Assembly: GCA_964596185.1 (NCBI GenBank) | Contig: CAZQUE010000001.1 | Location: 135,460 to 199,459 of the forward strand | Length of the DNA stretch: 64,000 nt | DNA from: an uncultured bacterium | GTDB taxonomy: Bacteria > Muiribacteriota > Ozemobacteria > Ozemobacterales > Ozemobacteraceae | Reading direction: 5' to 3' | Made by a program: the position numbers and the translations under genes | The notes under the pieces: generated by a model | What the model was told of the DNA's origin: nothing | What the model saw: only the letters and a program-made list of their open reading frames with translations | Databases searched by the model: none | Part shown: positions 1-15,966 of the stretch, piece after piece | Layout of the letters: each line of letters opens with the position of its first letter | Numbering within the stretch: the first letter of the stretch is position 1

Positions 1-1247
1 CCCGGCTATATCTCAAAAATGGGGCTAATGAAGATTCGGTTCGCATCTATGAGAAAATCCTGCGACTTGAGCCTGAAAATGCCCTGATCATGGTGGAGCT
101 TGCCAGTTGCCAGATCAAACTAGGGAACTTCGAAGAAGCAACATTTTTGCTTGAACGGGCTCAAGAAATCAAACCCGGGTTTTATGCCGTTTTTCTGACC
201 TTTTCACGTCTTTATGAGGCGCAGAAAGATACTGGCCGTCAGGTGAGTTTTCTAATGCTTGCCGCTAATGCCGCACCTGAAAAAACTGAAATCAGGCTGG
301 CGCTTGCCGATCTTTTGAAAAGGCATGGCGACGTAAATGGGGCAATTTCTCAATATCGTAGCTTGATCGAAGAGCATCCAAGACTCGAACCGGCTTTATT
401 CGCTGCAGGTATCTTGCTGATGAACCGAAATGAGCTTGCCGAGGCGATGATGTGCTTTCGGCGTATACTTAATTTTAATCCTGGTGCTTTTGATGCTCAT
501 TTTAACCTCGCCAACTGTCTTTTCCGCCAGAAAAAGTATCAGATGGCAATTACTCATTTCCGTTTTGCCAGCAGAAGTAAAAAAATGGTCGAACGCTCAC
601 TTTATCTTTCAGCACAATGTCATCTGCAGTTAGGTGATTACGACCGGGCGATCGTTGCCATGGAACAGCTGGTAAATCATGACGAAAACAATATTTCTTA
701 TCAGAAAAGTCTTGCAGAAATTTACTCGGCGGCCAAAGAGCACGATCTGGCTCGCGACACATGGCGTTTGCTGTCAAAGCTGGCTCCAGAACGCCCTGAA
801 TTCATGGTCAAATATGCTGAGTCCCTGGTGCGATTGAAGGATTTCGATCGGGCAGAAAAGGCTCTCGACAATCTCTTCCGAATGCATCCAGGGCACATCG
901 AGGGACATCGTATTCTTGGTGAAATCTATCTGTTAAGGGGCCAATACTCTGCAGCAATCGAAGAATTCAAGCGCACTCTGATGATCAATGAAAACTATGC
1001 CGCGGTTTATCTTGGCCTGGCAAAAGTTTTTGCTGAAACCGGTGAAATGGAAAAAGAATATCAGGCTCTTGAAAAGGCCTGTGAACTAGGTATCGAAGAA
1101 CCACAGATTTTGCTGAAACTTGGCCAGCTTGAAAATCGTTTGAATAAGCCGACCTCGCTCGACAGATTTCGAAGAATCACAGAAATTGCTCCAGATTCAG
1201 ACTGTGCTCTTGAAGCCGAATATTATCTAAGGCACCAGGCCGCCTGA
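1..1247 (+). CDS. TPR-repeat protein, 5' end outside window
   Basis: The reading frame is open from position 3 through the annotated ATG at 90 and already carries TPR-like sequence (YLKNGANEDSVRIYEKILRLEPENA), so the gene starts upstream of the window. The whole ORF is made of repeated 34-aa TPR-like units rich in A, L, Y and N with W/LG/Y/A/F/A/P positions. Stop at 1247. Confidence 0.6.
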   Translation, partial: RLYLKNGANEDSVRIYEKILRLEPENALIMVELASCQIKLGNFEEATFLLERAQEIKPGFYAVFLTFSRLYEAQKDTGRQVSFLMLAANAAPEKTEIRLALADLLKRHGDVNGAISQYRSLIEEHPRLEPALFAAGILLMNRNELAEAMMCFRRILNFNPGAFDAHFNLANCLFRQKKYQMAITHFRFASRSKKMVERSLYLSAQCHLQLGDYDRAIVAMEQLVNHDENNISYQKSLAEIYSAAKEHDLARDTWRLLSKLAPERPEFMVKYAESLVRLKDFDRAEKALDNLFRMHPGHIEGHRILGEIYLLRGQYSAAIEEFKRTLMINENYAAVYLGLAKVFAETGEMEKEYQALEKACELGIEEPQILLKLGQLENRLNKPTSLDRFRRITEIAPDSDCALEAEYYLRHQAA

Positions 1248-1248
1248 T

Positions 1249-1977
1249 TCAATTCAAAGCTATCATTGCCGCGATTCCAGTCAGCTGGATTGCGGCAAAA
1301 ATTCTTTCAGGCCAATTTTTTTCTGGGAAAATTGCCGCTATCAATGCCGCTGCACCGACGAAAATTGCCGGGGCAAATGCAAATCTGGGTGCCATGGCGA
1401 ATAAAAACAGGAAACTCAAGCCTGCCCAGGCCGGCAGAGTGGCAAATTTAGTCCGAAAAGTTGCCAGCGCGGCGATGGCAAATGCGATTAATGGCGCAAC
1501 TTTCACTGGTAAAGACAGAAACGGGCAGCCATGCAGCGGAAAATTGAAGAGGATGAAAATCATCGCCGGCCACACATAAGGCCCAGGCTCAAGAACTTCA
1601 CGGCGAATAAATATGACCGTGGCAACGAACCAGATCACGGCCTTGCTTGCCAAAGCGATAAAAGCCAGCGAGAGACCGGCCTGACGAAAGCTTGCGGCAA
1701 GGATTATGGCGATTGAAGCTTCTACCACAGGGTACTGCCAGGAAATCGGCGCCTGGCAGTAGCGGCATTTTCCCCTTAGCATTAGCCAGCTCAAAACCGG
1801 CAGCAAATCACCGGCATGAAGTCGATGATTGCATTTTGGGCATGCAGAGGGTGGAAAAATAACCGAGGTTCGGCTCGACATTCGCAGAATGACTACGTTA
1901 CAGAAACTGCCCAGGAGACTGCCAAAAACAAGGAAAAAGATGGTTAACAGATTTTGAAGTAACTCTTGCGCTGGCAT
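1249..1977 (-). CDS. pilD: Type IV prepilin peptidase (A24 family, PilD-like)
   Basis: ATG start at 1977. The N-terminal zinc-binding tetracysteine motif (CPKCNHRL...CRYCQAPIS) is followed by a multi-pass membrane domain, which is the typical PilD/A24 architecture. It sits next to the pilin gene. Confidence 0.75.
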   Translation of the reverse strand: MPAQELLQNLLTIFFLVFGSLLGSFCNVVILRMSSRTSVIFPPSACPKCNHRLHAGDLLPVLSWLMLRGKCRYCQAPISWQYPVVEASIAIILAASFRQAGLSLAFIALASKAVIWFVATVIFIRREVLEPGPYVWPAMIFILFNFPLHGCPFLSLPVKVAPLIAFAIAALATFRTKFATLPAWAGLSFLFLFAMAPRFAFAPAIFVGAAALIAAIFPEKNWPERIFAAIQLTGIAAMIALN

Positions 1978-2041
1978 AATTTTCTTTCTATTTGAGGTTA
2001 AAACAGAATAATCGATTTAACCCATGAAGGCAAAAAAAAAG

Positions 2042-2072
2042 AGCGACTGAAACCAGTCGCTCAATTTTGTGA
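2042..2072 (-). terminator. Rho-independent terminator after the pilin gene
   Basis: A hairpin gagcgactg-aaac-cagtcgctc (2051-2072) is preceded on the plus strand by a 9-nt A-run (2042-2050). Read on the minus strand this is a hairpin followed by a T-run, immediately downstream of the pilin stop at 2083. Confidence 0.5.
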
Positions 2073-2082
2073 CTAAGAAAAC

Positions 2083-2427
2083 TTAGCTGTCGTTGCTTTC
2101 AATGGTTCCATGGTTAGAACATTCGATGAGACCATTGTCATCAAGGCCGGTGCCTGAAATGACACAACTCTGCGCTGCTGGCGTAATGGGAGCCTTGAGA
2201 TACTTACCGCTGACGAGTTTACTCATAACGAGTGTGCTCATCATGTCGGTGTGATCCATGTTGTACATTTCAACTGCACCAAGGACAACTCTCATGTTTG
2301 CGTAGCAGGCTTTTTCACGGGCCTGTTCACGAGCCTTTCGGAAGTTAGGAATCGCGATGGCGGCCAGAATACCAATAATAGCGATAACGATCATAAGTTC
2401 AATCAACGTGAAGCCTCTGCGTTTCAT
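2083..2427 (-). CDS. pilA: Type IVa pilin (prepilin with class III signal peptide)
   Basis: MKRRG|FTLIELMIVIAIIGILAAIAIP: a short basic leader, then Gly-Phe(+1), Glu(+5) and a hydrophobic alpha1 helix. ATG start with an AAGGAG SD 8 nt upstream. Total length 114 aa. Confidence 0.85.
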   Translation of the reverse strand: MKRRGFTLIELMIVIAIIGILAAIAIPNFRKAREQAREKACYANMRVVLGAVEMYNMDHTDMMSTLVMSKLVSGKYLKAPITPAAQSCVISGTGLDDNGLIECSNHGTIESNDS

Positions 2428-2471
2428 AAAAACTCCTTTCTTGAAAAAATTACGGTACTACCGTCAACTTA

Positions 2472-2500
2472 ATACTAACTAGAATGATGGGTTTTGTCAA
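2472..2500 (-). promoter_or_regulatory. Candidate sigma70-type promoter for the pilin gene
   Basis: On the minus strand: TTGACA (2495-2500), a 17-nt spacer, then TAGTAT (2472-2477). This lies ~45 nt upstream of the pilin ATG. No sigma54 TGGCAC-N5-TTGC element is visible. Confidence 0.35.
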
Positions 2501-2609
2501 TCACCCCCGGTAGCCCGAAAAAGTTCGTTAATTGTTAGGGTTTTCTACATTATTGTCTGCAACCCTGTTTGACAATTTTTTTCCTTTTCTATATTCTTTA
2601 CCAATCCAA

Positions 2610-4832
2610 ATGGTCGAAAGGCTTTTCCCCTTGAAAAAAGTTCTGGGAGCAACTTTATTAATTCTTGCTCTGGTTTCCCTTACTTTTTTTTTCTCAGATT
2701 TTTTTTATGGCCATTATTCGGGCTCGGAGTACAGAACTTTAGACCCTGATTCGTTATTTTTTTTGCGAATATTTGAAAAAACCATGGCTCAAGGTAATGT
2801 CCCTGCCTATGATAGCTATGGATCATTTCCCGACAGATTCAATTTTCAATACCCGCCATTTCACATGTTCATTTTGCAAAAAACTGCAAACTTTTTGAGT
2901 TTGATCTGGCCTGGCCAAGACCCTCGCTACCTTGTGGGGTGGCTCCCTCCTTTTTTTGGATGGGTTTTGGCTATGATCCTGGTGAGCTTCGTCTGGGCAA
3001 AGACCCGCAATGCTGTTTTGACTTTACTGGTCAGCTTTGCCTGTGTTCCGGGCATTATCTCGACGATAATTTATCAGTTTCAAAGAATCGATTACCATTT
3101 TCTCAACAATTTTTTCATCTGGGTTTGGATCATTTTTGCGGCGTTATACTGTGATGGCAGAAAGCAGTGGCATTTGATCGCAGGTGTCGTTGCTGCGCTT
3201 CTGTTTCAAATGACCTGGGGTGGTACACCCTTGTTTTTTTTCATTGTAACCGTTTATTTTGTGGTTCTGCTTTTTTTCAGATCCGGAATCTTATCTGATT
3301 TTGGCTTCTATTGTTCTTCTTCAATGGTTGTTTCTTCTTTGACCATTTTGCTTTTCCTGGTCATTTCAGGAGTTAAAACATTCAATCTCGGGGGATTGAG
3401 TCTATTGCAGCCCCTGCTGATTCTTTCTGGCGGGATATTCGTGGTTATCGCACTATGGATGCCTTCATTATCCGGGAAAGGTAGATTTGCTCTGCTTGCT
3501 CCGATATTGATTTTTGCCGCATTGCTTTTTCCTTATTTTTTCGAGAAGGTAAAAGATGGTTTTACCTTTGTATCAAATTCTGATTTAAACCTTCAGTCTA
3601 TTAACGAGTTAAGGGCGGGAATCAATTTTTCTCAAATTCTGGTGTCATTTTCAGGAATTATTTCTGCTGTATCGAAGCTGAGACTAGTCTTTTTTCTGTT
3701 TCCATTTCTGATTTTCTTCAATCCATCCGGTCTTTTTGATGGCGGTGGCAAACTTTTGAAGGGCTTTAGCGCGATTTTTCTTCTTATGGGGTGTTTTTCC
3801 GAAAGATATTTTCGTTGGCTGGGCATTTTAATCGGATTTTGGAATGGCGTGGCCCTGTTTTTTCTTTTTTGCGTAATAAGTTCGACTGTAAAGGCGGATG
3901 ATTCAACGGTCTTCAGGAAAAATTTCAAATATTTGTTTTTTCTGCCATTTTTGCTTCTGCACTTTTTCTGGAGTTATCCAATGTTTTATAAACCCAGTTC
4001 TGCTTCTGGAGCTGCGCTGATGTCTGCGATGAATTGGATTCGCGACAATACGCCACCTACCAGCGGTTTCTTAGACAATAAGACTCCGGAATACGGTATT
4101 TACAACTACTGGCATTCAGGTAATGTCGTCAATTACTACGCTCAGCGCCCGACAATCGTAAACAATACCATGGTTGGGTATGGAAAAATGGCCGAAATTT
4201 TTTGCGCTGCAGATGAAGAATCTGCCTATTCGATTTGCGAGAAATATGGGATCAGATATTTTTATATCAACTCTTTTTATGATTTTTCTGATCGATTGGT
4301 CCGGTTTATGAGGGCATACTACCTTAGGCCGGGCGTGACCGGAACCGAATATCTATTCTTTCCTGATTATATTGATAATCCTGAAGATAGCTTTAAGTTC
4401 GACAAGACATTTCACTACTGGCTAAGAAATAAACTGGCAATTGAACCTTCCGGGATGTTCTCTGAAGCTGCTTCCAGACTAAGAATCGTATATTGTGATG
4501 AATATCATAGTGCCAACATGCTGCCCACCTATCTACTTTATGAACTGGTGCGCGGAGCAGTTGTTAAAGGGAATGCCGACGCGGGTTCAGAGGTGGAGGT
4601 TGCTTTGGACTGTCGTTTTGCTGATGTTGAAACCAGATACAGAAGAAAAGTCAAAGTTTCCGATCAGGGCGATTTTTCTATCCGACTTCCCTATGCAAAT
4701 TCATGGAAAAATGGCAATGTTGAAACAGGCAGTGCTTATCAAATCTCAGTCTTTATTGACGGAAAGATGAGTGAGCGCAGCTTTTCTCTTTCAGAAAATG
4801 ATGTGGCAGCTGGTAACGAGATAAAATTGTGA
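2610..4832 (+). CDS. Polytopic membrane protein, putative STT3/AglB/PglB-like oligosaccharyltransferase family (paralog A)
   Basis: There are 12-13 predicted TM helices followed by a soluble C-terminal domain. Motifs resemble the STT3 superfamily: DPDSLFFLR in loop 1 (DxD-like), SFPDRFNFQYPP (compare WFDDRAWYP), and YNYWHSGNVVNYYAQRPTIVNNTMVGYGKM, which aligns to [24 protein letters not shown]...VGKAM. I set the start at ATG 2610 by alignment with the N-terminus of paralog B; the six-frame track began at TTG 2532. Confidence 0.5.
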   Translation: MVERLFPLKKVLGATLLILALVSLTFFFSDFFYGHYSGSEYRTLDPDSLFFLRIFEKTMAQGNVPAYDSYGSFPDRFNFQYPPFHMFILQKTANFLSLIWPGQDPRYLVGWLPPFFGWVLAMILVSFVWAKTRNAVLTLLVSFACVPGIISTIIYQFQRIDYHFLNNFFIWVWIIFAALYCDGRKQWHLIAGVVAALLFQMTWGGTPLFFFIVTVYFVVLLFFRSGILSDFGFYCSSSMVVSSLTILLFLVISGVKTFNLGGLSLLQPLLILSGGIFVVIALWMPSLSGKGRFALLAPILIFAALLFPYFFEKVKDGFTFVSNSDLNLQSINELRAGINFSQILVSFSGIISAVSKLRLVFFLFPFLIFFNPSGLFDGGGKLLKGFSAIFLLMGCFSERYFRWLGILIGFWNGVALFFLFCVISSTVKADDSTVFRKNFKYLFFLPFLLLHFFWSYPMFYKPSSASGAALMSAMNWIRDNTPPTSGFLDNKTPEYGIYNYWHSGNVVNYYAQRPTIVNNTMVGYGKMAEIFCAADEESAYSICEKYGIRYFYINSFYDFSDRLVRFMRAYYLRPGVTGTEYLFFPDYIDNPEDSFKFDKTFHYWLRNKLAIEPSGMFSEAASRLRIVYCDEYHSANMLPTYLLYELVRGAVVKGNADAGSEVEVALDCRFADVETRYRRKVKVSDQGDFSIRLPYANSWKNGNVETGSAYQISVFIDGKMSERSFSLSENDVAAGNEIKL

Positions 4833-4849
4833 AAAAGAGGACTTGAACC

Positions 4850-7093
4850 TTGTTGCGATTGCTTCCAATAGACAAAAAGACCGGGATTTTTCTGGTTTCG
4901 TTGCTTTTGATTCTGGCTTGCTCCTTAACGATGTTCTATTCAGACTACCTTTTCCAAACTTCTGAAAGATCCCAGTATGTGACCAGAGATTCCGATTCGA
5001 TCTTTTTCATGCGTTTGTATGAAAAAGCAATCAATACAGGAAAAATCTCGCAAAAGGACTATTACGGCTCTTTTCCTGATGAACTGGAAATCAAATACCC
5101 ACCGTTTCATTTAAGATTTTTGCTTGAAATCAGCTATTTTCTGATGATGTTTTTGCCGGAAAAATGGTGGGGGATTGATTTTCTTATCGGTTGGATCCCG
5201 CCTTTCTTTGGTTGGATGATCGGCCTGCTGATGATTTTTTATACCTGGAAGAAAACCGGAAATAAAGGACTTACGTTAATGGTTGCCTTTGCCTGCATTC
5301 CCGGCAGAATCGCGGCGATGAGTTCGTTGTTTCTCAAGATAGATTATGATTTTCTGATAAATCTTTTTATCTGGGTCTGGGTTGTCGGTGCAGCAATGTA
5401 TTGTCCAGACAAAAGCCGCTTCTGGCAGTTTGCCGGAACAATTTCATTATTATTGTTTATTTTTACCTGGGGCGGGGTTCCACTATTTTTCTCGGTTGTT
5501 TTCATTTATTCTTTGTTTTTGCAGATTGTTAACCGACAGCTTGGCCAACAATTCGCCGAATATGCCAAATCAACATTTTTTCTCTCTTGCCTGGTGGCGT
5601 TGGTCTACGTTTTATACTCCGGAGAAAAGACCCTGAATATTGGTTATCTTGGTCTCTTCCAACCATTGTTTGGCCTGGCGGTTGCAGTTCTTCTGGTGGT
5701 TTTTGAAAAACTCTTCAGAAAAGAACCTGGAGCAGAGAGCAAAATTGCGCATTACCTTGCAATTGCCACTTTGCCATTGATTGCAATACTGGCAGCATTT
5801 TTCTTCCGTGACCAGCTTAGCAGTGGTTTTTCATTTCTGTTTAACAAAGATCCGCACATGCTCTCGGTGGGTGAACTGCAGCCAATAATCAGCTTTTCAG
5901 AATTGATCAAGGATAGAGATATTTTAATTTCTGCTCTTTATCGATTAAGTCTGATGTTTTTCTTCTTTCCATTGATTTTTTTGGCCAATCCAGGCCGTAT
6001 TTTTTCCGGAGAAGGCCGTTTCGTTCGGGACTTTGCCATTCTGTTTCTGCTCATGGGCTGCTATTCTGTCAGATATTTTCGTTGGGTTGGCCTGGTAATA
6101 GGGTTTTTGAACGGTTTGATCCTGTTCGAGCTGTTTTTAATTTTTTCCCGCCGTTTCTGCAATTCAGAAAGAAAATATGGCCGGCTGTTGCTGATCGTTC
6201 CTCTGATGGTTTTACATTTCGTTTTGAGCTATCCCGTATTTTCAAGAACTGCAGGGATTAAAAAAGCTAATTTGCAGGCTTTGACCTGGATAAATGAAAA
6301 TACTCCACCCACCAGCGGTTACTATGACGAGAAAAGGCCTGAATATTCGATTTTCGCGGTCTGGAGCTACGGGAACCAGATAAATTATTATGCAAGAAGG
6401 CCGACGATTGTAAACAATACCATGGCCGGTTTTGGAAAAATGTCCAGATTGATTACTGCTGAAGATGAAACTCAGGCCTATGAATTATGCAAAAAATACG
6501 GAGTCAGATACTTTTTTATCGATGCCAAATATAGATTGACAGATGAATTGGTTAAATTCATGCAGGTCTATGCGAAAAAAGTAGATGAAAAAGATGTCGT
6601 TTACCGTTTTATCGATGATTCTCAAGAAAGCACGACCCGTTCCAATGGTTTAAAGGAGTCTTTTTATTATTGGTTGGGCAGCAAGCTGGCAATGGAAAAA
6701 AGCTTCAATTTTCCTCAGGCCGCATCGAGATTGCGAATCGTTTATTGCTATGAATACTATTCCGAAAAAATTCCTCCGGAGCATTTGATTTTTCAGCTTG
6801 TTGAAGGCGCAAAGCTCACTGGTAAAGCTGATGCAGGAACCAAGGTCCGTATCGAATTGGATTGTCAGTTTTTCGCGATCAAGAGAAAATTTGTTCAGGA
6901 AACTATTGTGGGTGAAGATGGAAGATTTGAGGCTACTGTTCCTTACTCAAATGGATATAAAAATGGATTTGTGTTTACCGGGCCGAACTATCTGATAACC
7001 AGAATGGTTGAGGGTAATACCGAGAGCAAAGAAGTTCAGGTTTCTGAAAAAGCGGTTATTGATGGTGACCGTATATTGCTGTCGGAACTTTGA
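4850..7093 (+). CDS. Polytopic membrane protein, putative STT3-like oligosaccharyltransferase family (paralog B)
   Basis: This is a tandem paralog of the previous gene, roughly 35-40% identical by eye. Shared blocks include YGSFPD..YPPFH, GW(L/I)PPFFGW, NTPPTSG, YYA(Q/R)RPTIVNNTM.G.GKM and AASRLRIVYC.EY. The WWDYG-equivalent reads AVWSYGN. TTG start at 4850 with an AAGAGGA SD, 17 nt after the stop of paralog A. Confidence 0.5.
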   Translation: MLRLLPIDKKTGIFLVSLLLILACSLTMFYSDYLFQTSERSQYVTRDSDSIFFMRLYEKAINTGKISQKDYYGSFPDELEIKYPPFHLRFLLEISYFLMMFLPEKWWGIDFLIGWIPPFFGWMIGLLMIFYTWKKTGNKGLTLMVAFACIPGRIAAMSSLFLKIDYDFLINLFIWVWVVGAAMYCPDKSRFWQFAGTISLLLFIFTWGGVPLFFSVVFIYSLFLQIVNRQLGQQFAEYAKSTFFLSCLVALVYVLYSGEKTLNIGYLGLFQPLFGLAVAVLLVVFEKLFRKEPGAESKIAHYLAIATLPLIAILAAFFFRDQLSSGFSFLFNKDPHMLSVGELQPIISFSELIKDRDILISALYRLSLMFFFFPLIFLANPGRIFSGEGRFVRDFAILFLLMGCYSVRYFRWVGLVIGFLNGLILFELFLIFSRRFCNSERKYGRLLLIVPLMVLHFVLSYPVFSRTAGIKKANLQALTWINENTPPTSGYYDEKRPEYSIFAVWSYGNQINYYARRPTIVNNTMAGFGKMSRLITAEDETQAYELCKKYGVRYFFIDAKYRLTDELVKFMQVYAKKVDEKDVVYRFIDDSQESTTRSNGLKESFYYWLGSKLAMEKSFNFPQAASRLRIVYCYEYYSEKIPPEHLIFQLVEGAKLTGKADAGTKVRIELDCQFFAIKRKFVQETIVGEDGRFEATVPYSNGYKNGFVFTGPNYLITRMVEGNTESKEVQVSEKAVIDGDRILLSEL

Positions 7094-7106
7094 ATAATTG
7101 ATTGAT

Positions 7107-9779
7107 TCAGGGCGTCGCTTGAAGATATTTGGTGTAATATTCAAAATCCATAATCAGAAAGCGCTGCAGATATTCCATCGTCAGCATGATCGAGGCATTT
7201 TTGTTAACTCGATCAATGTCATAGTTCTTTAGCGGTTCAAAAATGGGCTTTCGGCCATCGAGCTTCATGCTCATGACCTTCATGCTGTTGAGATCTTTGT
7301 AATACCAATAATAGTTATCGTTTTCCTGCAGGGCGAGATGATTGAAAGAGGCAAGAAAAATCTTGCGCGGTGCAGGATTTGCGGTTAGCAGATCCATGCC
7401 TTGAATCACTACCGGAACTTTGCTTTTGACCCCACAAAGATTCAGTGCAGTGGGCAAAATATCAATATGTGAGCCTGGAGTTGGGTTTATTTTTAAGCCG
7501 GTGCTGTTTGGTCTGATAATAATAAGAGGAACATTCGTCAGATGTGGGTCGCAGTTCCAGCCGTGCCCAAATTGGCCATTTTCGCCAAGGCTGGTGACGT
7601 GGTCGGAAGTAATCATTATATAAGTGTTTTCGCTAAGCCTGTTTGCATCAAGGGCCTCAACAATTCTGAAAATCTGTGAGTCGAGATAGCTGATGCAGTC
7701 TTTGAATCTGCCGACGGCATCATTGGGTGATTTGCCGAAAACGGTTGGGTGGTCGGAGATCTGATTGAATGGAGCATGAGGAAAAGCGGCCCGGTAATAG
7801 ATGAAGAAAGGTTGATCAGAACTGCTTTTCTCTTTAAGAAAATCTGAAATTCGATCGACGACGAAATGTTCCTTTACGCCCCATATCCAGCCATCATCCT
7901 TGGTCATGCCGGGCATGGTGGTCGCATCATACATTCTGTCAGCGCCTCGTGGGCGATAAAAATTGGCAATTCCTGTATTGCCGGTATAGATCGAGAAAAA
8001 GAGCGAGCAATCAAAACCGGATGCTTTCAAAACTTCGATTAAAGTATTACAAATAAAAACCGGTTTGCTTCTGAAAATATGGAATGTTGATGGGATGATC
8101 CCGGAAAAAATTGAAAATTCTGCATTTGAAGATTCGGCAAAAGATGAAAAATAAAATGGAAAAATCTCGATTCGATCTTTTAATGATTCGAGCTTCGGGG
8201 TAGTTGCATCCTCATTGCCGAAAAGCTGCAAATATCTGGTTCCGGTTGATTCGAGGGTAATCAGAATCAGATTGGCAGGTTTTTGCACATTTTGTTGTCG
8301 TTGCGATTCAACAAACTTTTTCGTTGTTTCCTCGATATTGAAGCCTGCCTGATCAAGTCTTTTCTTGAGAGCTTCAGGGGTTGGGCGTTTTGAAAAATAG
8401 TTTTTGAAATAAGGAACCGAGCCGATGAGGTTGTTGACCGGGTCTGACATGCCGGCAACCGGCGAGTTCAACATGCGCGAGCCGATGTTTGAAATAGCCG
8501 AAAAGCCAAGAATGATAATCAGAAAAAGTTTGGTTCTGCTGGTCGATTTGGCAATGATTCGACCGGATACGAAGCTGGCACTTAACCAGAGAACCGTTGG
8601 CACAATGATAAGGCCGACCAATGTTCCGATACTGACTACTTTGACGGCAGTATTCAAAAACATGCTTAAAGTGCTGAGACTCAAGACCCAATCAATTGCA
8701 TGAAAGTCTACACTCTGGCCCATGTTGAAGAACACAAAACCGTCGACGACATAGAAAATAAAAAGCAGGAACGCCAGCGAATAGAAAATCGCCTTTTCTG
8801 CTTTCTTGCTGAAAAGGCCGAAAAATACTGCAATGATACTGATGATGGTCAGATGAGAAATGGCCATGAAGGCATAACCGAATGAGAAAAGCAAAAGCCA
8901 GAAGTTGAAAACGCAGATCCCCATTGGAATTCGGTTAACTGAAAAGCTGAAAACAATGCTGAAAAAAAGCAGAAAAAACCATGAATGATTTGGTGAACCG
9001 CTTTCATGATGAGATTCGGCAAATTTGATCATTCGAAAACCCAGAAGCCAACATAAAAAGAACAATACTAAAACTGAGATCAGCGATGAACTGTAGATAA
9101 TAGCAAAGTTCAACAGGTAAGCAACTGATGAAACGAAGGTTAGCCCGAAAAAGTAATGCAGGTATCGTGGTGATCGACCTTTGGCGCAGTTAGTCGAGAT
9201 CAGGGTTGTGAACAAAACCGCAAAAGCAAAAATCAATTGGTAATTACTTAAATAATAGGTGAATTGAAAAAAAGGCAGGATACATAACAGATCGATAATC
9301 CGCTCATATCCAGCTTTTCGGGTGATGTAAAAAACCAGGCCATAAAACAGCAGACTCCAGACAATGAACGGCGACTGAAAAAACATGTCCATTATCAAAA
9401 CTGCACTTAAATCTTCATAAGTGGCCTGTGCTTCAAAAATTCTAAAAAGAGCCGGCTTACTGCCGCCCAGCTTGAGATTTGTCAGGGCAAAAATTATAAA
9501 TGCCGCAGGGTAAACCAGGGCGCTCTTGAATTGAAAATCTTTGGGAAAGCGCTTTATCGAGCGAAAGTAGGCGATAAATAAAACTACATATACAGCAATG
9601 TACAGCCAGATGCCGAACTCGGGAAAAGAAAGATCCGGCCTGACCAGTTCGCCAAGGTTTTTGGGAACGTTTAAGAAGATGGCGAAAACACGTGCGGCAA
9701 GAATAAGAACAAATGCCGTATAAACTGGGGCCTTTAGACGCTCTGCGGCACTTTTCCAGAAAAGGATGAAAGAATTCAT
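7107..9779 (-). CDS. Membrane-anchored sulfatase / alkaline-phosphatase-superfamily transferase (LtaS/EptA/PptA-like)
   Basis: A ~520-aa multi-TM N-terminal region is followed by a C-terminal sulfatase-type domain (ITLESTGTRYLQLFG..., ITSDHVTSLGENGQFGHGWN). I moved the start to ATG 9779 (MNSFILFW). The longer track ORF would overlap pilT by ~100 nt. Confidence 0.7.
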   Translation of the reverse strand: MNSFILFWKSAAERLKAPVYTAFVLILAARVFAIFLNVPKNLGELVRPDLSFPEFGIWLYIAVYVVLFIAYFRSIKRFPKDFQFKSALVYPAAFIIFALTNLKLGGSKPALFRIFEAQATYEDLSAVLIMDMFFQSPFIVWSLLFYGLVFYITRKAGYERIIDLLCILPFFQFTYYLSNYQLIFAFAVLFTTLISTNCAKGRSPRYLHYFFGLTFVSSVAYLLNFAIIYSSSLISVLVLFFLCWLLGFRMIKFAESHHESGSPNHSWFFLLFFSIVFSFSVNRIPMGICVFNFWLLLFSFGYAFMAISHLTIISIIAVFFGLFSKKAEKAIFYSLAFLLFIFYVVDGFVFFNMGQSVDFHAIDWVLSLSTLSMFLNTAVKVVSIGTLVGLIIVPTVLWLSASFVSGRIIAKSTSRTKLFLIIILGFSAISNIGSRMLNSPVAGMSDPVNNLIGSVPYFKNYFSKRPTPEALKKRLDQAGFNIEETTKKFVESQRQQNVQKPANLILITLESTGTRYLQLFGNEDATTPKLESLKDRIEIFPFYFSSFAESSNAEFSIFSGIIPSTFHIFRSKPVFICNTLIEVLKASGFDCSLFFSIYTGNTGIANFYRPRGADRMYDATTMPGMTKDDGWIWGVKEHFVVDRISDFLKEKSSSDQPFFIYYRAAFPHAPFNQISDHPTVFGKSPNDAVGRFKDCISYLDSQIFRIVEALDANRLSENTYIMITSDHVTSLGENGQFGHGWNCDPHLTNVPLIIIRPNSTGLKINPTPGSHIDILPTALNLCGVKSKVPVVIQGMDLLTANPAPRKIFLASFNHLALQENDNYYWYYKDLNSMKVMSMKLDGRKPIFEPLKNYDIDRVNKNASIMLTMEYLQRFLIMDFEYYTKYLQATP

Positions 9780-9790
9780 TTCGATGCGCC

Positions 9791-10852
9791 TTAAGCGCTC
9801 TTGAGCATTCTTTCGAGTTCCTTCGGATGCATGGTGTGTGACATTGCTTCTTCGAGAGTGATGTCGCCACGCAAATATAGGTCGCGCAGGCACATTTCGA
9901 AGGTCATCATGCCCTCGTCATGGCTGGTCTGCATGACCGTGTACAGTCCGGAAATCTTCTGTTCGCGAATACAGTTGGCGACGGCCGGGTTTCCGATGAG
10001 AATTTCGTTACAGACGACTCGGCCTTTGCCGCTGGCCATCGGAATGAGCTGCTGGGCAACGACTGCTCTGAGAACGAATGAAAGCTGTGAGCGGATCTGG
10101 CTTTGCTGGTGCGGCGGGAAAATATCGATGATACGGTTGATTGTCTGGGCAGCATCGGTAGTATGCAGAGTGCCGAAAACAAGGTGGCCGGTTTCCGCCA
10201 TGGTACAGGCAGCTGAAACAGTCTCGAGGTCGCGCATTTCGCCGACGAGGATAACGTCTGGATCTTCGCGAAGCACGCGTCTGAGAGCTTCACCGAAAGA
10301 GTTGGTGTCGATATGCAGTTCACGCTGGTTGACCACAGATTTTTTGTGGTAATGCAGGTATTCGATCGGATCTTCGATGGTCATGATGTGATTTCGTCTG
10401 GTTTCGTTGACGATATTGATCAGGCAGGCCAGAGAAGTTGATTTACCAGAACCGGTCGGACCGGTAAAGAGAACCAGCCCTTTGCGCAATTTGGTGAAGT
10501 CACGGAGTTTTTCGGGCAGTCGAAGCTCTTCGAGCGAAGGAATGCGGGTTGGAATAATTCGAAATGCTGCGCCGATACAGCCTCTTTGTTTATAAACGTT
10601 AACGCGGAATCGGCCAAAGCCATGAACTGAATAAGACAGGTCAAGCTCTTTGCATTCTTCGAATTCTTTCTGCTGTTCAGCAGTCAGCATGTTGTAGATC
10701 AACGATCTTGTATCCATAGGAGTGAGAACATCAAGATCGGTTTGAATCAATTCTCCATCAACGCGGATAACCGGAGGGGTTCCCACGGTAATATGAAGAT
10801 CTGATGCACCGTTTTCAATTACCAGGTTTAGCAGATCGTTAAGAACAAACAT
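9791..10852 (-). CDS. pilT: Twitching-motility ATPase PilT
   Basis: The N-terminus MFVLNDLLNLVIENGASDLHI..., Walker A GPTGSGKST and the 353-aa length are PilT hallmarks. Confidence 0.9.
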   Translation of the reverse strand: MFVLNDLLNLVIENGASDLHITVGTPPVIRVDGELIQTDLDVLTPMDTRSLIYNMLTAEQQKEFEECKELDLSYSVHGFGRFRVNVYKQRGCIGAAFRIIPTRIPSLEELRLPEKLRDFTKLRKGLVLFTGPTGSGKSTSLACLINIVNETRRNHIMTIEDPIEYLHYHKKSVVNQRELHIDTNSFGEALRRVLREDPDVILVGEMRDLETVSAACTMAETGHLVFGTLHTTDAAQTINRIIDIFPPHQQSQIRSQLSFVLRAVVAQQLIPMASGKGRVVCNEILIGNPAVANCIREQKISGLYTVMQTSHDEGMMTFEMCLRDLYLRGDITLEEAMSHTMHPKELERMLKSA

Positions 10853-10885
10853 TTTCCCGCACTCCTTATTTTTTTATGTGTATGA

Positions 10886-12718
10886 TTAGTGCTCGCCCAT
10901 GGTGACGCGGACAACTTCTTCAAGAGAGGTCATACCGGTGAGGGCTTTTCTCAGAGCTGATTCGCGCAGTGACAACATGCCTTCTTCAATGGCCTGTCTT
11001 CTGATGTCATCGGTTGAGCCGCCGTTGAGAATGATATCTCTAAGGCGTTCGGACATCAACATAACTTCGTAAACGCCGACGCGGCCTTTTGATCCTGAGT
11101 TGTTGCAGGTTTCGCAGCCTTTGCCCTTGTAGAACATCATATTCTTTTCATTGATGTGGGGCAGGTCGAGACGTCTGAGTAATTCTGGGGTGATGCCGAA
11201 CTGGCTGATTTGCTCAGCTCTTGGTTTGATTTCAAATTTGCAGTCTTTACAGATTTTTCTGACCAGACGTTGTGCCTGAACGATAACGACCGAGGTCGTA
11301 ACCATGAAAGGTTCGATACCCATGTTAACGATACGGCCGATGGTGCCGGGCGCATCGTTGGTATGCAGGGTTGAAAGCACAAGGTGGCCGGTCATCGACG
11401 CTTTGATCGCGATTTCTGCGGTTTCAAAGTCACGAATCTCACCGACCATGATTACATCCGGATCCTGGCGCAGGAAGGAGCGCAGGGCCGCGGCGAAAGT
11501 CAGGCCGATTTCAGGTTTACACTGCACCTGGTTAACCCCATGCAGCATGTATTCAACCGGATCTTCAGCGGTCATGACGTTGGTGTCGACGGCGTTGAGA
11601 GATGTCAGCGCCGAATAAAGCGTTGTGGTTTTACCTGATCCGGTTGGACCGGTAACGAGAATGATGCCGTATGGCGAGGCAATACCGCCCTTGAAGCGTT
11701 CAAGCGTTTTTGGTTCGAACCCGAGATCTTCAAGGTTAACCTTGAGCGAGCTCTGGTCGAGAATTCGCATAACGATTTTTTCGCCCCAGATAACCGGCAG
11801 AACCGATACGCGCAAGTCGATCATGCGGTTGGCCACTTTGATCTTGATACGTCCATCCTGTGGCAGACGCTTTTCAGCGATATTGAGTGACGACATGATT
11901 TTGATACGCGAAGTGATAGCGGCGGTAGCCTTTTTGGGCGGGCTCATGGCGGTGAACATCATGCCGTCCTGGCGATAACGCACGCGCAATTCTTTTTCGA
12001 ACGGTTCGATATGAATGTCGGAAACCCCGTTTTGAACAGCCTGAGAAATAACCAGGTTGCAAAGGCGGATGATCGGCGCATCGTTTTCGCCGAGTTCGCC
12101 GAGCTGGTCGAGATCTTCGTCGTCGGTGTGTCCGATGTCTTCAAGGTCGTCCATCAGTTTGTCCTGCTGGGCAACGGCACCATAGGCGTCCTGTAGTGCT
12201 TTACTGATGTCAGTATGGGTCGCGACGACCGGTTTGACCATCAAACCGCTCATCAGCTGAATGTCGTCGATGGCAATGATGTTAAGTGGGTCGACCATGG
12301 CCACGGTAAGCTTGTTTCCGACCTTGTTGATCGGAATGAGCATGTGACGCTTGGCGATATGTTCGGGTACCAGTTTCGCAATAACCGGATCAATCAGGTA
12401 GTTTGACAGGTCAATGAACGGTATACGAAGCTGCTTTGACAGGATCTGAACGATATCCTGTTCGGTGACAAGATGCATTTCAACCAGCACCGCGCCAAGT
12501 CGTTTGCCGCTCTTTTTCTGTAGCGCCAGAGCCTGTTGCAGTTGCTCTTCGTTGATCAGACCTTCATGAATAAGTGCATCCCCAAGACGCATTTTCTTGG
12601 GAATAGTAGACGAAGAAGCTCCTGGCTTGGGTGGCCCCGGTGGCGCAGCGGCCGGGCCTGGGGGCATTGCGCCGCCATCCGGTCCCTGGCCGGGCTGTGC
12701 AGGAATAGATTGATTCAT
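10886..12718 (-). CDS. pilB: Type IV pilus assembly ATPase PilB (GspE family)
   Basis: An Ala/Pro-rich N-terminus is followed by a GSPII_E N-domain, Walker A GPTGSGKTTT and a C-terminal CxxC...CxxC zinc finger. There is a strong AAGGAAGG SD. Confidence 0.9.
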   Translation of the reverse strand: MNQSIPAQPGQGPDGGAMPPGPAAAPPGPPKPGASSSTIPKKMRLGDALIHEGLINEEQLQQALALQKKSGKRLGAVLVEMHLVTEQDIVQILSKQLRIPFIDLSNYLIDPVIAKLVPEHIAKRHMLIPINKVGNKLTVAMVDPLNIIAIDDIQLMSGLMVKPVVATHTDISKALQDAYGAVAQQDKLMDDLEDIGHTDDEDLDQLGELGENDAPIIRLCNLVISQAVQNGVSDIHIEPFEKELRVRYRQDGMMFTAMSPPKKATAAITSRIKIMSSLNIAEKRLPQDGRIKIKVANRMIDLRVSVLPVIWGEKIVMRILDQSSLKVNLEDLGFEPKTLERFKGGIASPYGIILVTGPTGSGKTTTLYSALTSLNAVDTNVMTAEDPVEYMLHGVNQVQCKPEIGLTFAAALRSFLRQDPDVIMVGEIRDFETAEIAIKASMTGHLVLSTLHTNDAPGTIGRIVNMGIEPFMVTTSVVIVQAQRLVRKICKDCKFEIKPRAEQISQFGITPELLRRLDLPHINEKNMMFYKGKGCETCNNSGSKGRVGVYEVMLMSERLRDIILNGGSTDDIRRQAIEEGMLSLRESALRKALTGMTSLEEVVRVTMGEH

Positions 12719-12803
12719 TACTGCAGTTCCTTCCTTATTTCTTTACAGAAACAATTCCATTAGACTGTCATGATATATCAAGTTTCACTGAATTTCCAGT
12801 AAA

Positions 12804-13628
12804 TCAGAATATACAACCACGCATAATTTTTTCGGGCGCTTCGAGATCTGTCAGCAGTTTGAACGATTCAACCGCCTGAAGCACCAGAAGCTCTTTGCCA
12901 TCGATAATTCTGCAGCCGGATTCATTGGCGGCACCAATTAATTGAGAGCAATCGCTATAATTAAGATCGAAAAAAATCTGCCGATTGTTTAGCTTAGTTT
13001 CAAACTCTTTGATTCTGTCTTCATTTTTCCAACCCAGGGGGGTGGCATTAATGATCAAATCAACTTTTGGTAAAATGGCCTCGAGGTTGTTCGAGTTCCA
13101 GTGCAGAGATTGAAATTCTGTACCCGTTGTCAGATACTGCGGTGCCTTAGATTTTTTTCTTGAGATCTGAAAAATTCTGGCAATTTTATTTTGCGTAAGA
13201 GCCCAGATTACGGCAGCGGCAGAACCGCCATTGCCAAGAACGAGCGCTGAGCCAATCTTTTTTAGAGATGCCAGTATCCGGCACATTGCTATAGCATCAG
13301 TGTTCCAGCCTTCGCTTCCTGCAGAAGAAAATTTTATCGTGTTTACCGCAGAGAGAAGGCTGGCTGGGGGATGTAAAACTTCGCAGAGTTCGGCGGCGTT
13401 TCTTTTGTGGGGAAGGGTAACGTTGACACCCTTGATTCCAAGTGCCTTAAGGCCGTTGAAAGCAGATGGCAGATCGACGACATCGAATGCCAGGTAAACT
13501 GCGGGGAATTTGAGAGCGGCGAAAGCGCAATTCCACATTGCCGGACTCAAAGAATGAGCTACCGGATGACCAATCAGCCCAAAAATGTGCTGAAAGCCCG
13601 ATTTGCATTTTTTTGGTTGCGTTGACAC
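12804..13628 (-). CDS. aroE: Shikimate dehydrogenase
   Basis: FGLIGHPVAHSLSPAMWNCAF matches the AroE N-terminal substrate-binding motif, and there is a Rossmann-type GNGGSAAAV. The start appears to be GTG. Confidence 0.75.
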   Translation of the reverse strand: MSTQPKKCKSGFQHIFGLIGHPVAHSLSPAMWNCAFAALKFPAVYLAFDVVDLPSAFNGLKALGIKGVNVTLPHKRNAAELCEVLHPPASLLSAVNTIKFSSAGSEGWNTDAIAMCRILASLKKIGSALVLGNGGSAAAVIWALTQNKIARIFQISRKKSKAPQYLTTGTEFQSLHWNSNNLEAILPKVDLIINATPLGWKNEDRIKEFETKLNNRQIFFDLNYSDCSQLIGAANESGCRIIDGKELLVLQAVESFKLLTDLEAPEKIMRGCIF

Positions 13629-13663
13629 CTAAAAGGGATCTTCTGGCAGAAGATTTACCGGCT

Positions 13664-14008
13664 TCAGGAAAAGCTTTTCAAAGCGCTTTCTTCAGAATCA
13701 AAAATTTCGAAAACTTTGGTCAGACGAGTGAGCTCGAACAGCTCCTGGACTGCCGGCGAAAGATTGATCAGCTTAAGGTCTCCCTTGGCTTTTTTGACCT
13801 TTTTCAAAGTTGCGGCAACGACGCCAAGGCCCATGCTGTTGAGATAATTCACTTCCTGAAAATCCATGATCAGTTTGTTTTTGCCGTCGGCAACGATCTG
13901 ATCGATACGATCTTTGAATTGATTGACGGTTTCGGTACCGATTTCGCCTCTGAGAACTACCAGCGTAACATCGTTACCCTTAGGTCTTACGTCGATTCTG
14001 ATTTCCAT
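13664..14008 (-). CDS. STAS-domain anti-sigma-factor antagonist (SpoIIAA-like)
   Basis: A 114-aa protein with the typical STAS pattern (...LRGEIGTETVNQFKDRI..., conserved phosphorylatable serine context NSMGLGVV). GGGAGG SD. Confidence 0.75.
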   Translation of the reverse strand: MEIRIDVRPKGNDVTLVVLRGEIGTETVNQFKDRIDQIVADGKNKLIMDFQEVNYLNSMGLGVVAATLKKVKKAKGDLKLINLSPAVQELFELTRLTKVFEIFDSEESALKSFS

Positions 14009-14058
14009 TTTGGTTTCCTCCCAGTTATTCTTCTGCCAAATAACTTTTCCTAAAATTA

Positions 14059-14094
14059 CCTCATCTTTCTCTCAGATGCAAGAGAAAGACGAGG
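14059..14094 (-). terminator. Stem-loop between the OMP gene and the STAS gene (possible terminator or attenuator)
   Basis: A 14-bp imperfect inverted repeat cctcatctttctct / agagaaagacgagg with an 8-nt loop, flanked by T/A-rich sequence. It lies between convergent-order genes on the minus strand. Confidence 0.3.
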
Positions 14095-14128
14095 TTTATT
14101 GTAAAGGGGATTTACAAACGTTTTTAGA

Positions 14129-15139
14129 TTAGAACTGTTTTGATGCAGAGATTCTATGCGCGTCTCCCAGAGTTTCGTCGGCGTAGGAATAATCAAAACG
14201 CCAGGTATCGAGCTTGAAGCTGGCACCAAGAGTCAGGTCGCCGTCGTGGGCACCGAGTCTCAGAGCGGCATAGTCCTGTACCCAGTATTCTGCGCCGGCA
14301 TAAAGCTTGGCATCCATGTCTTCAACCTTGTTGATGTCGGCGGCGATTGTAAGCTTGTCATTGGGCTTATGGGCAACACCAACCTGAAGGGTGGTGGGAA
14401 CGCTATCAGAATGTCCTGAAGCTGTATCCCATTCGAGAGATTCACCAATGTCGCGAACAGACAGACCCAGAGTCGTCTTTTCGTTGGCTTCATAGAGGAA
14501 GCCGAGATCGAGGCCGAAACTGTCTGCCGAGTTGGTAAACAGATCCTGGCTCAGATATTTGAGGTTGATACCACCATACCAGCGATCAGCCAGTTTTTTG
14601 GCGTATGAACCGAAAGTTGCTTTTTCAGAATCATCGAAGTAGCTGAAAATGTAAACTGATTTACCGGGAGAATAAGTCCCGTCAGGATTGGTAGCCGGAA
14701 GATCCGTTCCTGCTGGAATCGCTGTTCCATCAAGAGTTGCAGGGGTGTTGCCTGTGCCATAAGTAGTGGCAAGCCGTGTTTCAGGAATACCATCAACGCC
14801 GAATCTGATGTGAGACAGGGCGACAACGCCATTGTCTTTGCCATCTTTGCCTTTAAGCGGATGCGCGTAGTTGAAGAAGTTGTATTCGCGATCCATGCTC
14901 AGGTCGGCGTGCATGAAAGAGCCTTCAGCCTTTTTCAGTTTGGCGAGTCCGGCCGGATTCCAAAACGCGGCGGTAGAGTCGTCGGCCAGTGCAGTGAATG
15001 CACTGCCCATGCCCAGAGCCCGGGCACCGACACCCATTTTCAGATATGCTCCCGCCTGGCCTGCGGATTCAGCAAAGGCAGTGCTCATGGTGCCTACGCT
15101 AAGAGCCACGAGGAAGAGAGTCTTTAAAACCTTTTTCAT
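14129..15139 (-). CDS. FadL/PorV-family outer-membrane beta-barrel protein
   Basis: Signal peptide MKKVLKTLFLVALSVGTMSTAFA. The FadL-type N-terminal hatch motif is present (GVGARALGMGSAFTALADDSTAAFWNPAGLAKL). The body has alternating-hydrophobic beta-strand character and ends in C-terminal ...ASKQF. I trimmed the start to ATG 15139. Confidence 0.55.
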   Translation of the reverse strand: MKKVLKTLFLVALSVGTMSTAFAESAGQAGAYLKMGVGARALGMGSAFTALADDSTAAFWNPAGLAKLKKAEGSFMHADLSMDREYNFFNYAHPLKGKDGKDNGVVALSHIRFGVDGIPETRLATTYGTGNTPATLDGTAIPAGTDLPATNPDGTYSPGKSVYIFSYFDDSEKATFGSYAKKLADRWYGGINLKYLSQDLFTNSADSFGLDLGFLYEANEKTTLGLSVRDIGESLEWDTASGHSDSVPTTLQVGVAHKPNDKLTIAADINKVEDMDAKLYAGAEYWVQDYAALRLGAHDGDLTLGASFKLDTWRFDYSYADETLGDAHRISASKQF

Positions 15140-15244
15140 ATTGTTTCCCCTTACGAGTCGATAGAACTGGTTATCTATCATTTCGGCAGCTGACTTGATT
15201 TTCTGAACGATAATTTAACTATTTTTGAAAAAAAGTTTTTTCAA

Positions 15245-15940: not shown

Positions 15941-15966
15941 TTTGCTATCTCCAATCATATTCGCTA

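Follow-up and report, generated by a model that had tools for sequence, protein, structure and literature searches.

Why should a bacterial type IV pilus locus harbor enzymes that resemble an archaeal oligosaccharyltransferase (OST)? The question is raised by a 64,000-nucleotide stretch of DNA from an uncultured bacterium of the Ozemobacteraceae (contig CAZQUE010000001.1, positions 135,460 to 199,459; hereafter the window), in which a short pilin gene is separated from pilT and pilB by the genes for two polytopic membrane proteins, here called OST1 and OST2, and for an 890-residue membrane protein of the sulfatase superfamily. We find that OST1 and OST2 belong to a small family whose genes recurrently stand head to head with pilin genes in Riflebacteria, and this repeated pairing suggests a mode of bacterial pilus decoration that has not been described before. 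We consider it fairly probable that the locus is a pilus-associated modification module of a Riflebacteria-type genome, whose acceptor would be the pilin or another pilus component.

An open reading frame (ORF) map of positions 1-16000, with gene identities taken from Pfam and NCBIfam/TIGRFAM hidden Markov model (HMM) scans, confirmed every gene that the first-pass annotation of this DNA, made without database searches, had placed between 1249 and 12718. The features are as follows.

1249-1977, minus strand: PilD-like membrane protein, 242 residues (PF06750, E = 1.5e-31)
2041-2062, minus strand: terminator-like hairpin, a 9-bp stem and then a T9 run, directly 3' of the pilin stop codon
2083-2427, minus strand: short ComGC-like prepilin, 114 residues (N_methyl/TIGR02532 above cut-off), with a visible Shine-Dalgarno sequence
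2472-2597: divergent intergenic region with sigma-70-like sites at 2500-2472 (minus strand, toward the pilin) and 2569-2597 (plus strand, toward OST1)
2610-4832, plus strand: OST1, AglB/STT3-family GT-C enzyme, 740 residues (AglB_L1 E = 2.6e-11, AglB_core E = 1.2e-7)
4850-7093, plus strand: OST2, AglB/STT3-family GT-C enzyme, 747 residues (AglB_L1 E = 1.6e-12, AglB_core E = 3.3e-9)
7107-9779, minus strand: polytopic sulfatase-superfamily membrane protein, 890 residues (PF00884, E = 1.7e-40)
9791-10852, minus strand: PilT retraction ATPase (TIGR01420, 476.4 bits versus a cut-off of 319.1)
10886-12718, minus strand: PilB assembly ATPase with an MshEN (cyclic di-GMP-binding type) N-terminal domain (TIGR02538, 710.8 bits versus a cut-off of 675.65; PF05157, E = 3.5e-22)

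PilB and PilT each exceed equivalog or subfamily cut-offs, which identifies a type IV pilus (type IVa-like) locus. The two OSTs share 41% identity with each other, and both carry the Pfam domains AglB_core and AglB_L1 above cut-off. TIGR04154, the model of the archaeosortase-A-associated OST, spans residues 17-600 with E values of about 1e-31 to 6e-31 for OST1 and 1.2e-46 for OST2, although the corresponding scores of 107 and 156 bits lie far under its cut-off of 450. A match to PF02516 (STT3), which had been suggested, was not reported for either protein at E ≤ 0.01. An AlphaFold2 model of OST2 (predicted local distance difference test score, pLDDT, 74.6; predicted template-modeling score 0.74) shows 13 long transmembrane helices and, after them, a C-terminal domain of mixed alpha/beta structure; together with the Pfam domains, this is the 13-helix GT-C fold with a C-terminal periplasmic domain that characterizes family GT66. 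In a Foldseek comparison with the PDB, the top match of this model was the A. fulgidus AglB-L (7e9s; E = 4.5e-24, TM-score 0.69; also 3waj, E ~1e-24), with eukaryotic STT3, PglB (TM-score 0.43-0.45), and DPY19 coming after AglB. PDB searches by sequence, using either a single sequence or a family profile, matched only AglB C-terminal domains, and the transmembrane domain is linked to AglB solely through fold comparison and TIGR04154. Judged from these domain matches and the model, OST1 and OST2 are divergent AglB/STT3-family members; STT3 is the family that the first-pass annotation had named as one to check for the two ~750-residue proteins.

The catalytic motifs of the family, namely D47-x-D49 in external loop (EL) 1, D165-Y-D/H in EL2, and S-V/I-x-E342 in EL5, are invariant across 12 and 26 sequences, as is R408. 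The WWDYG motif of STT3-type enzymes reads the +2 Ser/Thr of the sequon, and a DK or MI motif adjoins the Ser/Thr pocket. Neither window enzyme has the WWDYG that typifies the STT3/AglB/PglB family: the position reads YWHSG(N) in OST1 and VWSYG(N) in OST2, so that both have other residues in place of the Asp and the first Trp. By alignment, K...R (OST2) and K...E (OST1) stand at the DK positions in place of D...K, with an offset M-x-x-I/L present. The wider Riflebacteria family has [YF]WD[EQR]GN and NNAMWG[YF]K[TK]MA[DE]IF, versus WWDYGN and NNFQxGxxDxAKFF in the archaeal outgroup.

How widely is the pairing with a pilin gene found? The OST family is small: a word-indexed search returned 11 clusters, and an exhaustive profile search ~50 representatives above 330 bits, followed by a gap down to ≤236 bits. 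Its nearest named outgroup consists of euryarchaeal archaeosortase-A-associated OSTs (the AglBs of Methanocella, Methanomethylovorans, and Halobacteriota), which is consistent with acquisition from Euryarchaeota, as has been proposed for bacterial STT3 in general (PMC4973528). Genome and metagenome scans yielded 39 loci, nearly all of which bear the label Riflebacteria, Rifleibacteriota, or Ozemobacter; with 8 more from protein look-ups, 47 loci were ORF-annotated with phmmer. A prepilin gene lies ≤140 bp upstream of the OST gene on the opposite strand in 24 of the 27 non-redundant loci having upstream sequence, mostly Riflebacteria, and the pair usually lies within a complete pilus cluster. 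The usual order is pilQ-x-x-pilO-pilMN-pilin <-> OST-[600-aa sulfatase-family-GDPD-like]-DUF2304-GT2(241 aa)-GT2(330 aa)-[methyltransferase-B12 radical SAM]-pilC-pilB, where SAM is S-adenosylmethionine. The head-to-head arrangement is retained down to ~28% OST identity, and one genome type holds two distinct pilus loci, each with an OST pair (L009 and L010 in one metagenome-assembled genome, or MAG; L025 and L026 in one metagenome). Bacterial AglB-like genes from beyond this family, namely those of Omnitrophica and Myxococcota, have no pilus cluster around them, and the pilus association is therefore specific to the Riflebacteria OST family. The synteny comparison that the first-pass annotation had proposed was thus strongly positive.

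We found no report, in the open-access literature, of an STT3/AglB enzyme within bacterial type IV pilus clusters, nor of such an arrangement in Riflebacteria. To our knowledge, STT3-type N-glycosylation in Bacteria is essentially that of PglB in Campylobacterota and some Desulfobacterota. Bacterial pilin glycosylation is known from TfpO and PglL, which are O-oligosaccharyltransferases unrelated to STT3, or from TfpW. In Archaea, AglB N-glycosylates archaellins and type IV pilins. Its action on archaeal pilins has been described (PMC5131992). The window enzymes resemble archaeal AglB in fold, in the AglB_core/AglB_L1 domains, in the DxD, DxD/H, and T/S-I/V-x-E motifs, and in their euryarchaeal nearest named relatives; their targets, judged by context, would likewise be type IV filament subunits, and their likely donor a monophosphate-linked polyprenol, as in Euryarchaeota. 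Unlike archaeal AglB, they occur in a bacterial host (Riflebacteria) and are encoded inside a pilus operon rather than alone or in an agl cluster; moreover, WWDYG is replaced by [YF]WDxG in the family and VWSYG/YWHSG in the window, DK is apparently unconserved, and the adjacent pilins have no conserved N-X-S/T.

The prospective acceptor is a short pilin. Its leader, MKRRG|FTLIELM, is a class III signal (G-1, F+1, E+5) and scores above the TIGR02532 cut-off (40.9 versus 16.3); the mature protein has 109 residues and ends in ...IESNDS. Its best full-length match is ComGC-like at 63.6 bits, under the cut-off of 75, and its orthologues bear Pfam ComGC_C. All five short-pilin orthologues end in Ser.

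Several observations weigh against a module that modifies the pilin, first among them the sequons, which we counted in all cluster proteins and window proteins and compared with 200-300 shuffles. OST-adjacent pilins are not enriched in N-X-S/T (0-5 sites; mean 1.48 versus 1.64 expected, z = -0.7); a sequon is lacking altogether in 6 of 25. The sole sequon of the window pilin, in the C-terminal E-S-N-D-S, is E-S-K-E-S in the 96%-identical L025 pilin, even though L025 has OST1, and the L050 pilin carries NDS with no local OST. Pilin adjacency is also imperfect: paralogues in L015 and L044 have no adjacent pilin, and in the species represented by L002 and L049 (which overlap over 3159 bp at 95.4% identity, i.e., one species) the OST1-clade gene P0004 lies ~11.5 kb from the PilD-like gene rather than adjoining the pilus locus. 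Donor-synthesis genes (GT2, DUF2304) lie outside the window. For the 890-residue enzyme, the AlphaFold2 model from a 6-sequence alignment has a mean pLDDT of only 46.4, with residues 1-463 almost all below 50, and orthology with the 600-residue sulfatase-family protein of the main clusters was rejected because the match is local and covers just 73 residues.

Canonical N-glycosylation of the adjacent pilin was dropped as the leading mechanism for want of sequon enrichment, and the E-S-N-D-S end was rejected as a PglB-type D/E-X-N-X-S/T site since it is not conserved among orthologues. In 13 of 25 main-cluster pilins a sequon recurs immediately ahead of a conserved WKGPY, as NY[ST] or N[IV]T, but not every pilin has this hot spot, and the pilins compared share ancestry. 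Pilin co-variation of the kind that canonical N-glycosylation predicts, which had been named as a test, was thus absent, given the lack of enrichment and the lost sequon in L025. Since the pilin sequon is unconserved, and since both OSTs have lost the Asp of WWD and, by alignment, apparently the DK pair as well, the acceptor is probably non-canonical, i.e., not a classical N-X-S/T. The reading of the locus as a pilin-modification island is therefore supported in part: it stands as regards the STT3-family and phospho-transferase-type enzymes and their synteny with pilin genes, but needs correction as regards sequon co-variation and, as shown below, the sulfatase-family gene, which is not an insertion, and the PilD-like protein, which is degenerate.

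The same sequon counts bear on another explanation, which we judge unlikely: that the OSTs are general N-glycosylation enzymes for periplasmic and surface proteins, with the pilin at most one target among others such as PilQ, PilO, and the adhesins with type IX secretion system (T9SS)-type tails encoded 3-28 kb away, and with pilin adjacency reflecting co-regulation or history. Archaeal AglB and PglB are generalists, two paralogues (in L002 and L015) are not beside pilins, and the OSTs of the main family retain [YF]WDxG. PilO, PilQ, and PilMN show a mild sequon excess (z = 2.5-4.6, inflated by relatedness). The two giant neighboring proteins bear 40 and 60 N-X-S/T sites; however, these numbers are at chance level (z = 0.4-0.6). 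The window OSTs, moreover, are without the sequon-reading Asp, and a general role does not readily account for a head-to-head order that is held to ~28% OST identity and has appeared at two distinct pilin loci.

Modifying enzymes encoded beside pilin genes are familiar (TfpO/PilO, TfpW, PglL, PptA/PptB), and the proposed module is like TfpO/PilO, TfpW, and PglL of Pseudomonas and Neisseria in that a polytopic glycosyltransferase gene adjoins the pilin gene that it would serve. TfpW, as a GT-C enzyme that uses a polyprenyl-phosphate sugar, is similar to what we propose here, and TfpO modifies a C-terminal pilin Ser, the residue with which the short pilins also end (5 of 5). By established knowledge, however, those enzymes are Wzy_C/O-antigen-ligase-like or non-STT3 GT-C proteins that form O-linkages; no likeness to them in sequence or fold came up in our analysis, in which no comparison aimed at them was made. 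With the PglB of Campylobacter and Desulfovibrio, the window OSTs have in common that they are bacterial STT3-family enzymes of apparent archaeal origin predicted to act in the periplasm. The structural match to PglB is weaker, and whereas PglB belongs to a pgl glycan-assembly cluster, with a heptasaccharide linked to undecaprenyl diphosphate and the sequon D/E-X-N-X-S/T, the present family belongs to pilus clusters with GacI/GacJ-type genes for an undecaprenyl phosphate (Und-P)-linked sugar.

What would the OSTs transfer? In the main clusters, the 241-residue GT2 best matches the polyprenyl-phosphate-sugar synthases PpgS, AglJ, PgfS, and ArnC, and a DUF2304 protein of the GacJ/Rv3632 family is its constant neighbor. 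In GacI/GacJ/GacL-type systems, the synthase is activated by DUF2304, and the Und-P-sugar serves as donor for a GT-C enzyme (bioRxiv 10.1101/180810). The main Riflebacteria clusters are like these and like PpgS/Rv3632/Rv3779 in that the GT2 is always beside DUF2304 and a GT-C enzyme; they differ in that the GT-C partner is of the STT3 family rather than the GacL or ArnT type, that the presumed acceptor is a protein, and that the donor genes are not in the window. The main cluster of the sister MAG (L010) has its own OST pair together with donor genes.

This likeness also underlies a quite improbable alternative, drawn by analogy with GacL, ArnT, OpgB, and LtaS, in which the GT-C and LtaS-like enzymes would modify not a protein but, for example, an envelope glycan, a glycolipid, or a teichoic-acid-like polymer needed or exported by the pilus or a secretion machine. 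The GacI/GacJ/GT-C logic is known from the addition of polysaccharide side chains (bioRxiv 10.1101/180810), the pilins lack a sequon signal, and the main clusters also hold the GDPD-like protein, the B12 radical-SAM protein, and the methyltransferase. LtaS/OpgB homologues, in addition, modify glycolipids and glucans. However, every characterized STT3-fold enzyme known to us, including DPY19, modifies proteins, AglB and STT3 outrank ArnT/Emb-type GT-Cs among the structural matches, and the OSTs still have AglB_core and AglB_L1, the C-terminal domains on the peptide side.

Main clusters vary in their remaining genes. In many (L001 and L003 among them, e.g., L003:15218-17342), the interval from the GT2 genes to pilC encodes a SAM methyltransferase and a B12 radical-SAM protein resembling HpnJ, and others have the 600-residue OpgB-like protein and the GDPD-like membrane protein. 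These extras point to variable further tailoring of the moiety that would be transferred. Two MAGs labelled Candidatus Avigastranaerophilus (Melainabacteria; L016 and L022) contain a complete pilQ..pilin<->OST..pilC-pilB cluster with a pilin N-terminal segment identical over the 32 residues compared, reflecting either transfer of the whole cluster between phyla or mis-binning or mis-labelling.

The second activity encoded in the locus is that of the 890-residue protein, which the first-pass annotation had rightly assigned to the sulfatase superfamily (PF00884) and which looks like a membrane-anchored member of phospho-transferase type. Its first 440 residues hold some 11-12 transmembrane helices. 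The periplasmic domain is closest to LtaP (4uop) and LtaS (2w5r) in the PDB and to OpgB/MdoB models, and E510, S550, H668, D726, H727, and H739 are invariant among orthologues, with S550 aligning with the Thr nucleophile of LtaP/LtaS. The catalytic domain contains no C/S-x-P-x-R formylglycine motif, and with invariant Ser550 at the nucleophile position, a sulfatase proper was rejected. Because of the LtaP/LtaS/OpgB matches, the invariant Ser550 and metal ligands, and the missing formylglycine motif, the protein looks like an LtaS/OpgB/PptB-type phospho-head-group transferase rather than a sulfatase. The general features of the LtaS/OpgB/EptA/PptA group (alkaline-phosphatase fold, Ser nucleophile, Glu/Asp/His metal ligands, and membrane anchor) are all present, but its NCBIfam hits are all ≤56 bits against cut-offs of 400-970, short of equivalog level, and the typical 5-helix N-terminal domain is missing. 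Homologues are rare, with only 8 among 5.8 billion proteins.

Neisseria PptA/PptB add phosphoethanolamine, phosphocholine, or phosphoglycerol to pilin Ser (PMC10948894). The 890-residue enzyme resembles these and LtaS/OpgB/EptC in its membrane-anchored PF00884 domain, whose nucleophile is Ser/Thr and whose metal ligands are Asp/His, and its gene resembles pptA/pptB in its conserved adjacency to the pilin gene. It differs from LtaS/EptA in having ~11-12 transmembrane helices in an N-terminal membrane domain of ~440-490 residues versus ~5 helices. In a Myxococcota locus (L053), an unrelated STT3-domain gene adjoins PMT_2-type GT-C genes and a sulfatase-family gene; an STT3 gene with a sulfatase-family neighbor may thus recur outside pilus contexts.

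When did these genes come together? Relatives at ~50% identity have the order STAS-aroE-pilB-pilT-sulf(x1 or x2)-pilin(ComGC_C)-A24_N-TPR, where sulf is the 890-residue-type gene; no OST gene separates the pilin gene from sulf. In every relative without OSTs these two genes are adjacent. In L050 (5003-10479) the sulf gene is tandemly duplicated (898 and 901 residues) between pilT and the pilin gene. The OST pair insertion is seen in the window, in the sister MAG (L009), and in a metagenome at 82% nucleotide identity (L025). By gene order, the conserved core is shown to be pilB-pilT-(LtaS/OpgB-like)-pilin-pilD', where pilD' denotes the PilD-like gene, and the OST pair to be a lineage-specific antisense insertion between sulf and the pilin gene. 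Contrary to the initial proposal that three enzymes had been inserted between pilin and pilT, only the OST pair counts as an insertion, because relatives without it keep pilB-pilT-sulf-pilin-pilD'.

One might suppose that the OST genes are decaying or non-functional passengers of a recent insertion, which would agree with their lineage-specific distribution, with the degenerate WWD and, apparently, DK motifs, and with a GC content below that of the flanks. However, both frames are full length with orthologues in two further assemblies, all catalytic acidic residues are kept, and the ratio of nonsynonymous to synonymous substitution rates (dN/dS) is 0.08-0.09 at a dS of ~1.4, which largely refutes this idea and makes it very improbable. 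Given dN/dS values of 0.09 for OST1, 0.08 for OST2, and 0.06 for the 890-residue enzyme, the three genes, as judged by their substitution patterns and retained catalytic residues, are shown to be intact, under purifying selection, and functional. Relative to the sister genomes L009/L025, dS is uneven across the locus (pilin 0.04, pilB/pilT 0.38, pilD' 0.78, sulfatase-family gene 0.99, OST1/OST2 ~1.4), which suggests either a mosaic or recombining locus or a pilin gene under strong codon constraint.

The gene at 1249-1977, annotated in the first pass as pilD, has the A24 N-terminal domain but neither the peptidase domain nor the catalytic aspartates. Peptidase A24 (PF01478) was undetected in its product even at E ≤ 1, and in none of the five highly conserved orthologues (those outside the window being L025:8650-9378, L048:6150-6887, L049:9984-10712, and L050:11035-11763) does the C-terminal membrane half contain any Asp. 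It thus has the Cys-rich N-terminal domain PF06750 alone, and not the two catalytic Asp residues that define a prepilin peptidase. With 93% amino-acid identity, a dS of 0.78, and a dN/dS of 0.05, this PilD-like protein is strongly conserved all the same; it may serve by itself as a pilin N-methyltransferase, or it may be a pseudo-peptidase.

A working model of the proposed module is as follows. The prepilin would enter the inner membrane and, because PilD' lacks the Asp pair, be cleaved by a peptidase encoded elsewhere, with PilD' keeping perhaps only an N-methylation or scaffolding role. At the periplasmic face, OST1 and OST2 would move a sugar or short glycan onto the pilin or another pilus component; the polyprenyl-monophosphate carrier would come from GacI/GacJ-like enzymes whose genes lie at the organism's other pilus locus. 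Through Ser550, the 890-residue enzyme might take a phospho-head-group (e.g., phosphoglycerol or phosphoethanolamine) off a membrane lipid and attach it to the pilin or the pilin glycan, in the manner of PptA/PptB. In its fullest form, the proposal is that duplicated archaeal-derived OSTs that have lost the WWD/DK pocket glycosylate pilins at a non-N-X-S/T acceptor (e.g., the invariant C-terminal Ser) from a polyprenyl-monophosphate sugar, alongside a new phospho-form transferase with a large membrane domain; so complete a version we regard as doubtful.

If the module is real, phylum-wide, operon-level coupling of AglB with pilins would link an archaeal practice (AglB acting on type IV pilins and archaellins) to Bacteria, and natural STT3 enzymes with an altered acceptor pocket would be relevant to glyco-engineering. 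Should the non-N-X-S/T proposal also hold, this would be the first bacterial STT3-family pilin glycosylation system, with an acceptor specificity new to the family. Experimental handles include the 109-residue mature pilin, the two paralogous OSTs, a minimal GacI/GacJ-type donor pathway, and naturally occurring genomes that have or lack the OST insertion. The PilD-like protein devoid of catalytic Asp and the new 890-residue phospho-transferase can likewise be put to the test.

Two gene starts required a choice. The OST1 ORF opens at 2532, but since alignment with OST2 begins only at OST1 residue 30 and a sigma-70-like site lies at 2569-2597, the start is probably the ATG at 2610. The ORF of the 890-residue gene spans 7107-9893 and overlaps pilT; because orthologues are 887-901 residues long, its start is almost certainly the Met at 9779. 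The two sigma-70-like sites in 2472-2597, identified solely by consensus, each agree with it at 10 of 12 positions, and a promoter scan of the divergent region gave a site count equal to the shuffle expectation, so that the divergent pair between pilin and OST1 is at most suggestive. An Rfam scan of the whole window returned zero matches, and we therefore find no riboswitch upstream of the pilin gene.

As the first-pass annotation had noted, the window contains no pilC, pilM-Q, or further prepilin genes; that the machinery is encoded elsewhere agrees with the second locus of the sister MAG (L010), which has pilC and pilB. The window does hold a second PilB-like ATPase (MshEN and T2SSE; 1162 residues; 45310-48798, minus strand) with a ~600-residue C-terminal extension without a Pfam match. 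Also on the minus strand are genes for two giant Ig-repeat surface proteins of 3260 and 4627 residues (15967-25749 and 26696-40579), each with a C-terminal T9SS-type Por_Secre_tail, a sorting domain unexpected outside Bacteroidota and the Fibrobacterota-Chlorobiota-Bacteroidota (FCB) group; a PorV/FadL-like outer-membrane protein (14129-15181, minus strand) is encoded next to them. Finally, a chemoreceptor within a cheA-cheW-cheB-cheR cluster (54760-57564, minus strand) combines HAMP and methyl-accepting chemotaxis protein signaling domains with an N-terminal [FeFe]-hydrogenase-like domain bearing 4Fe-4S clusters, and may be a redox or H2 sensor.

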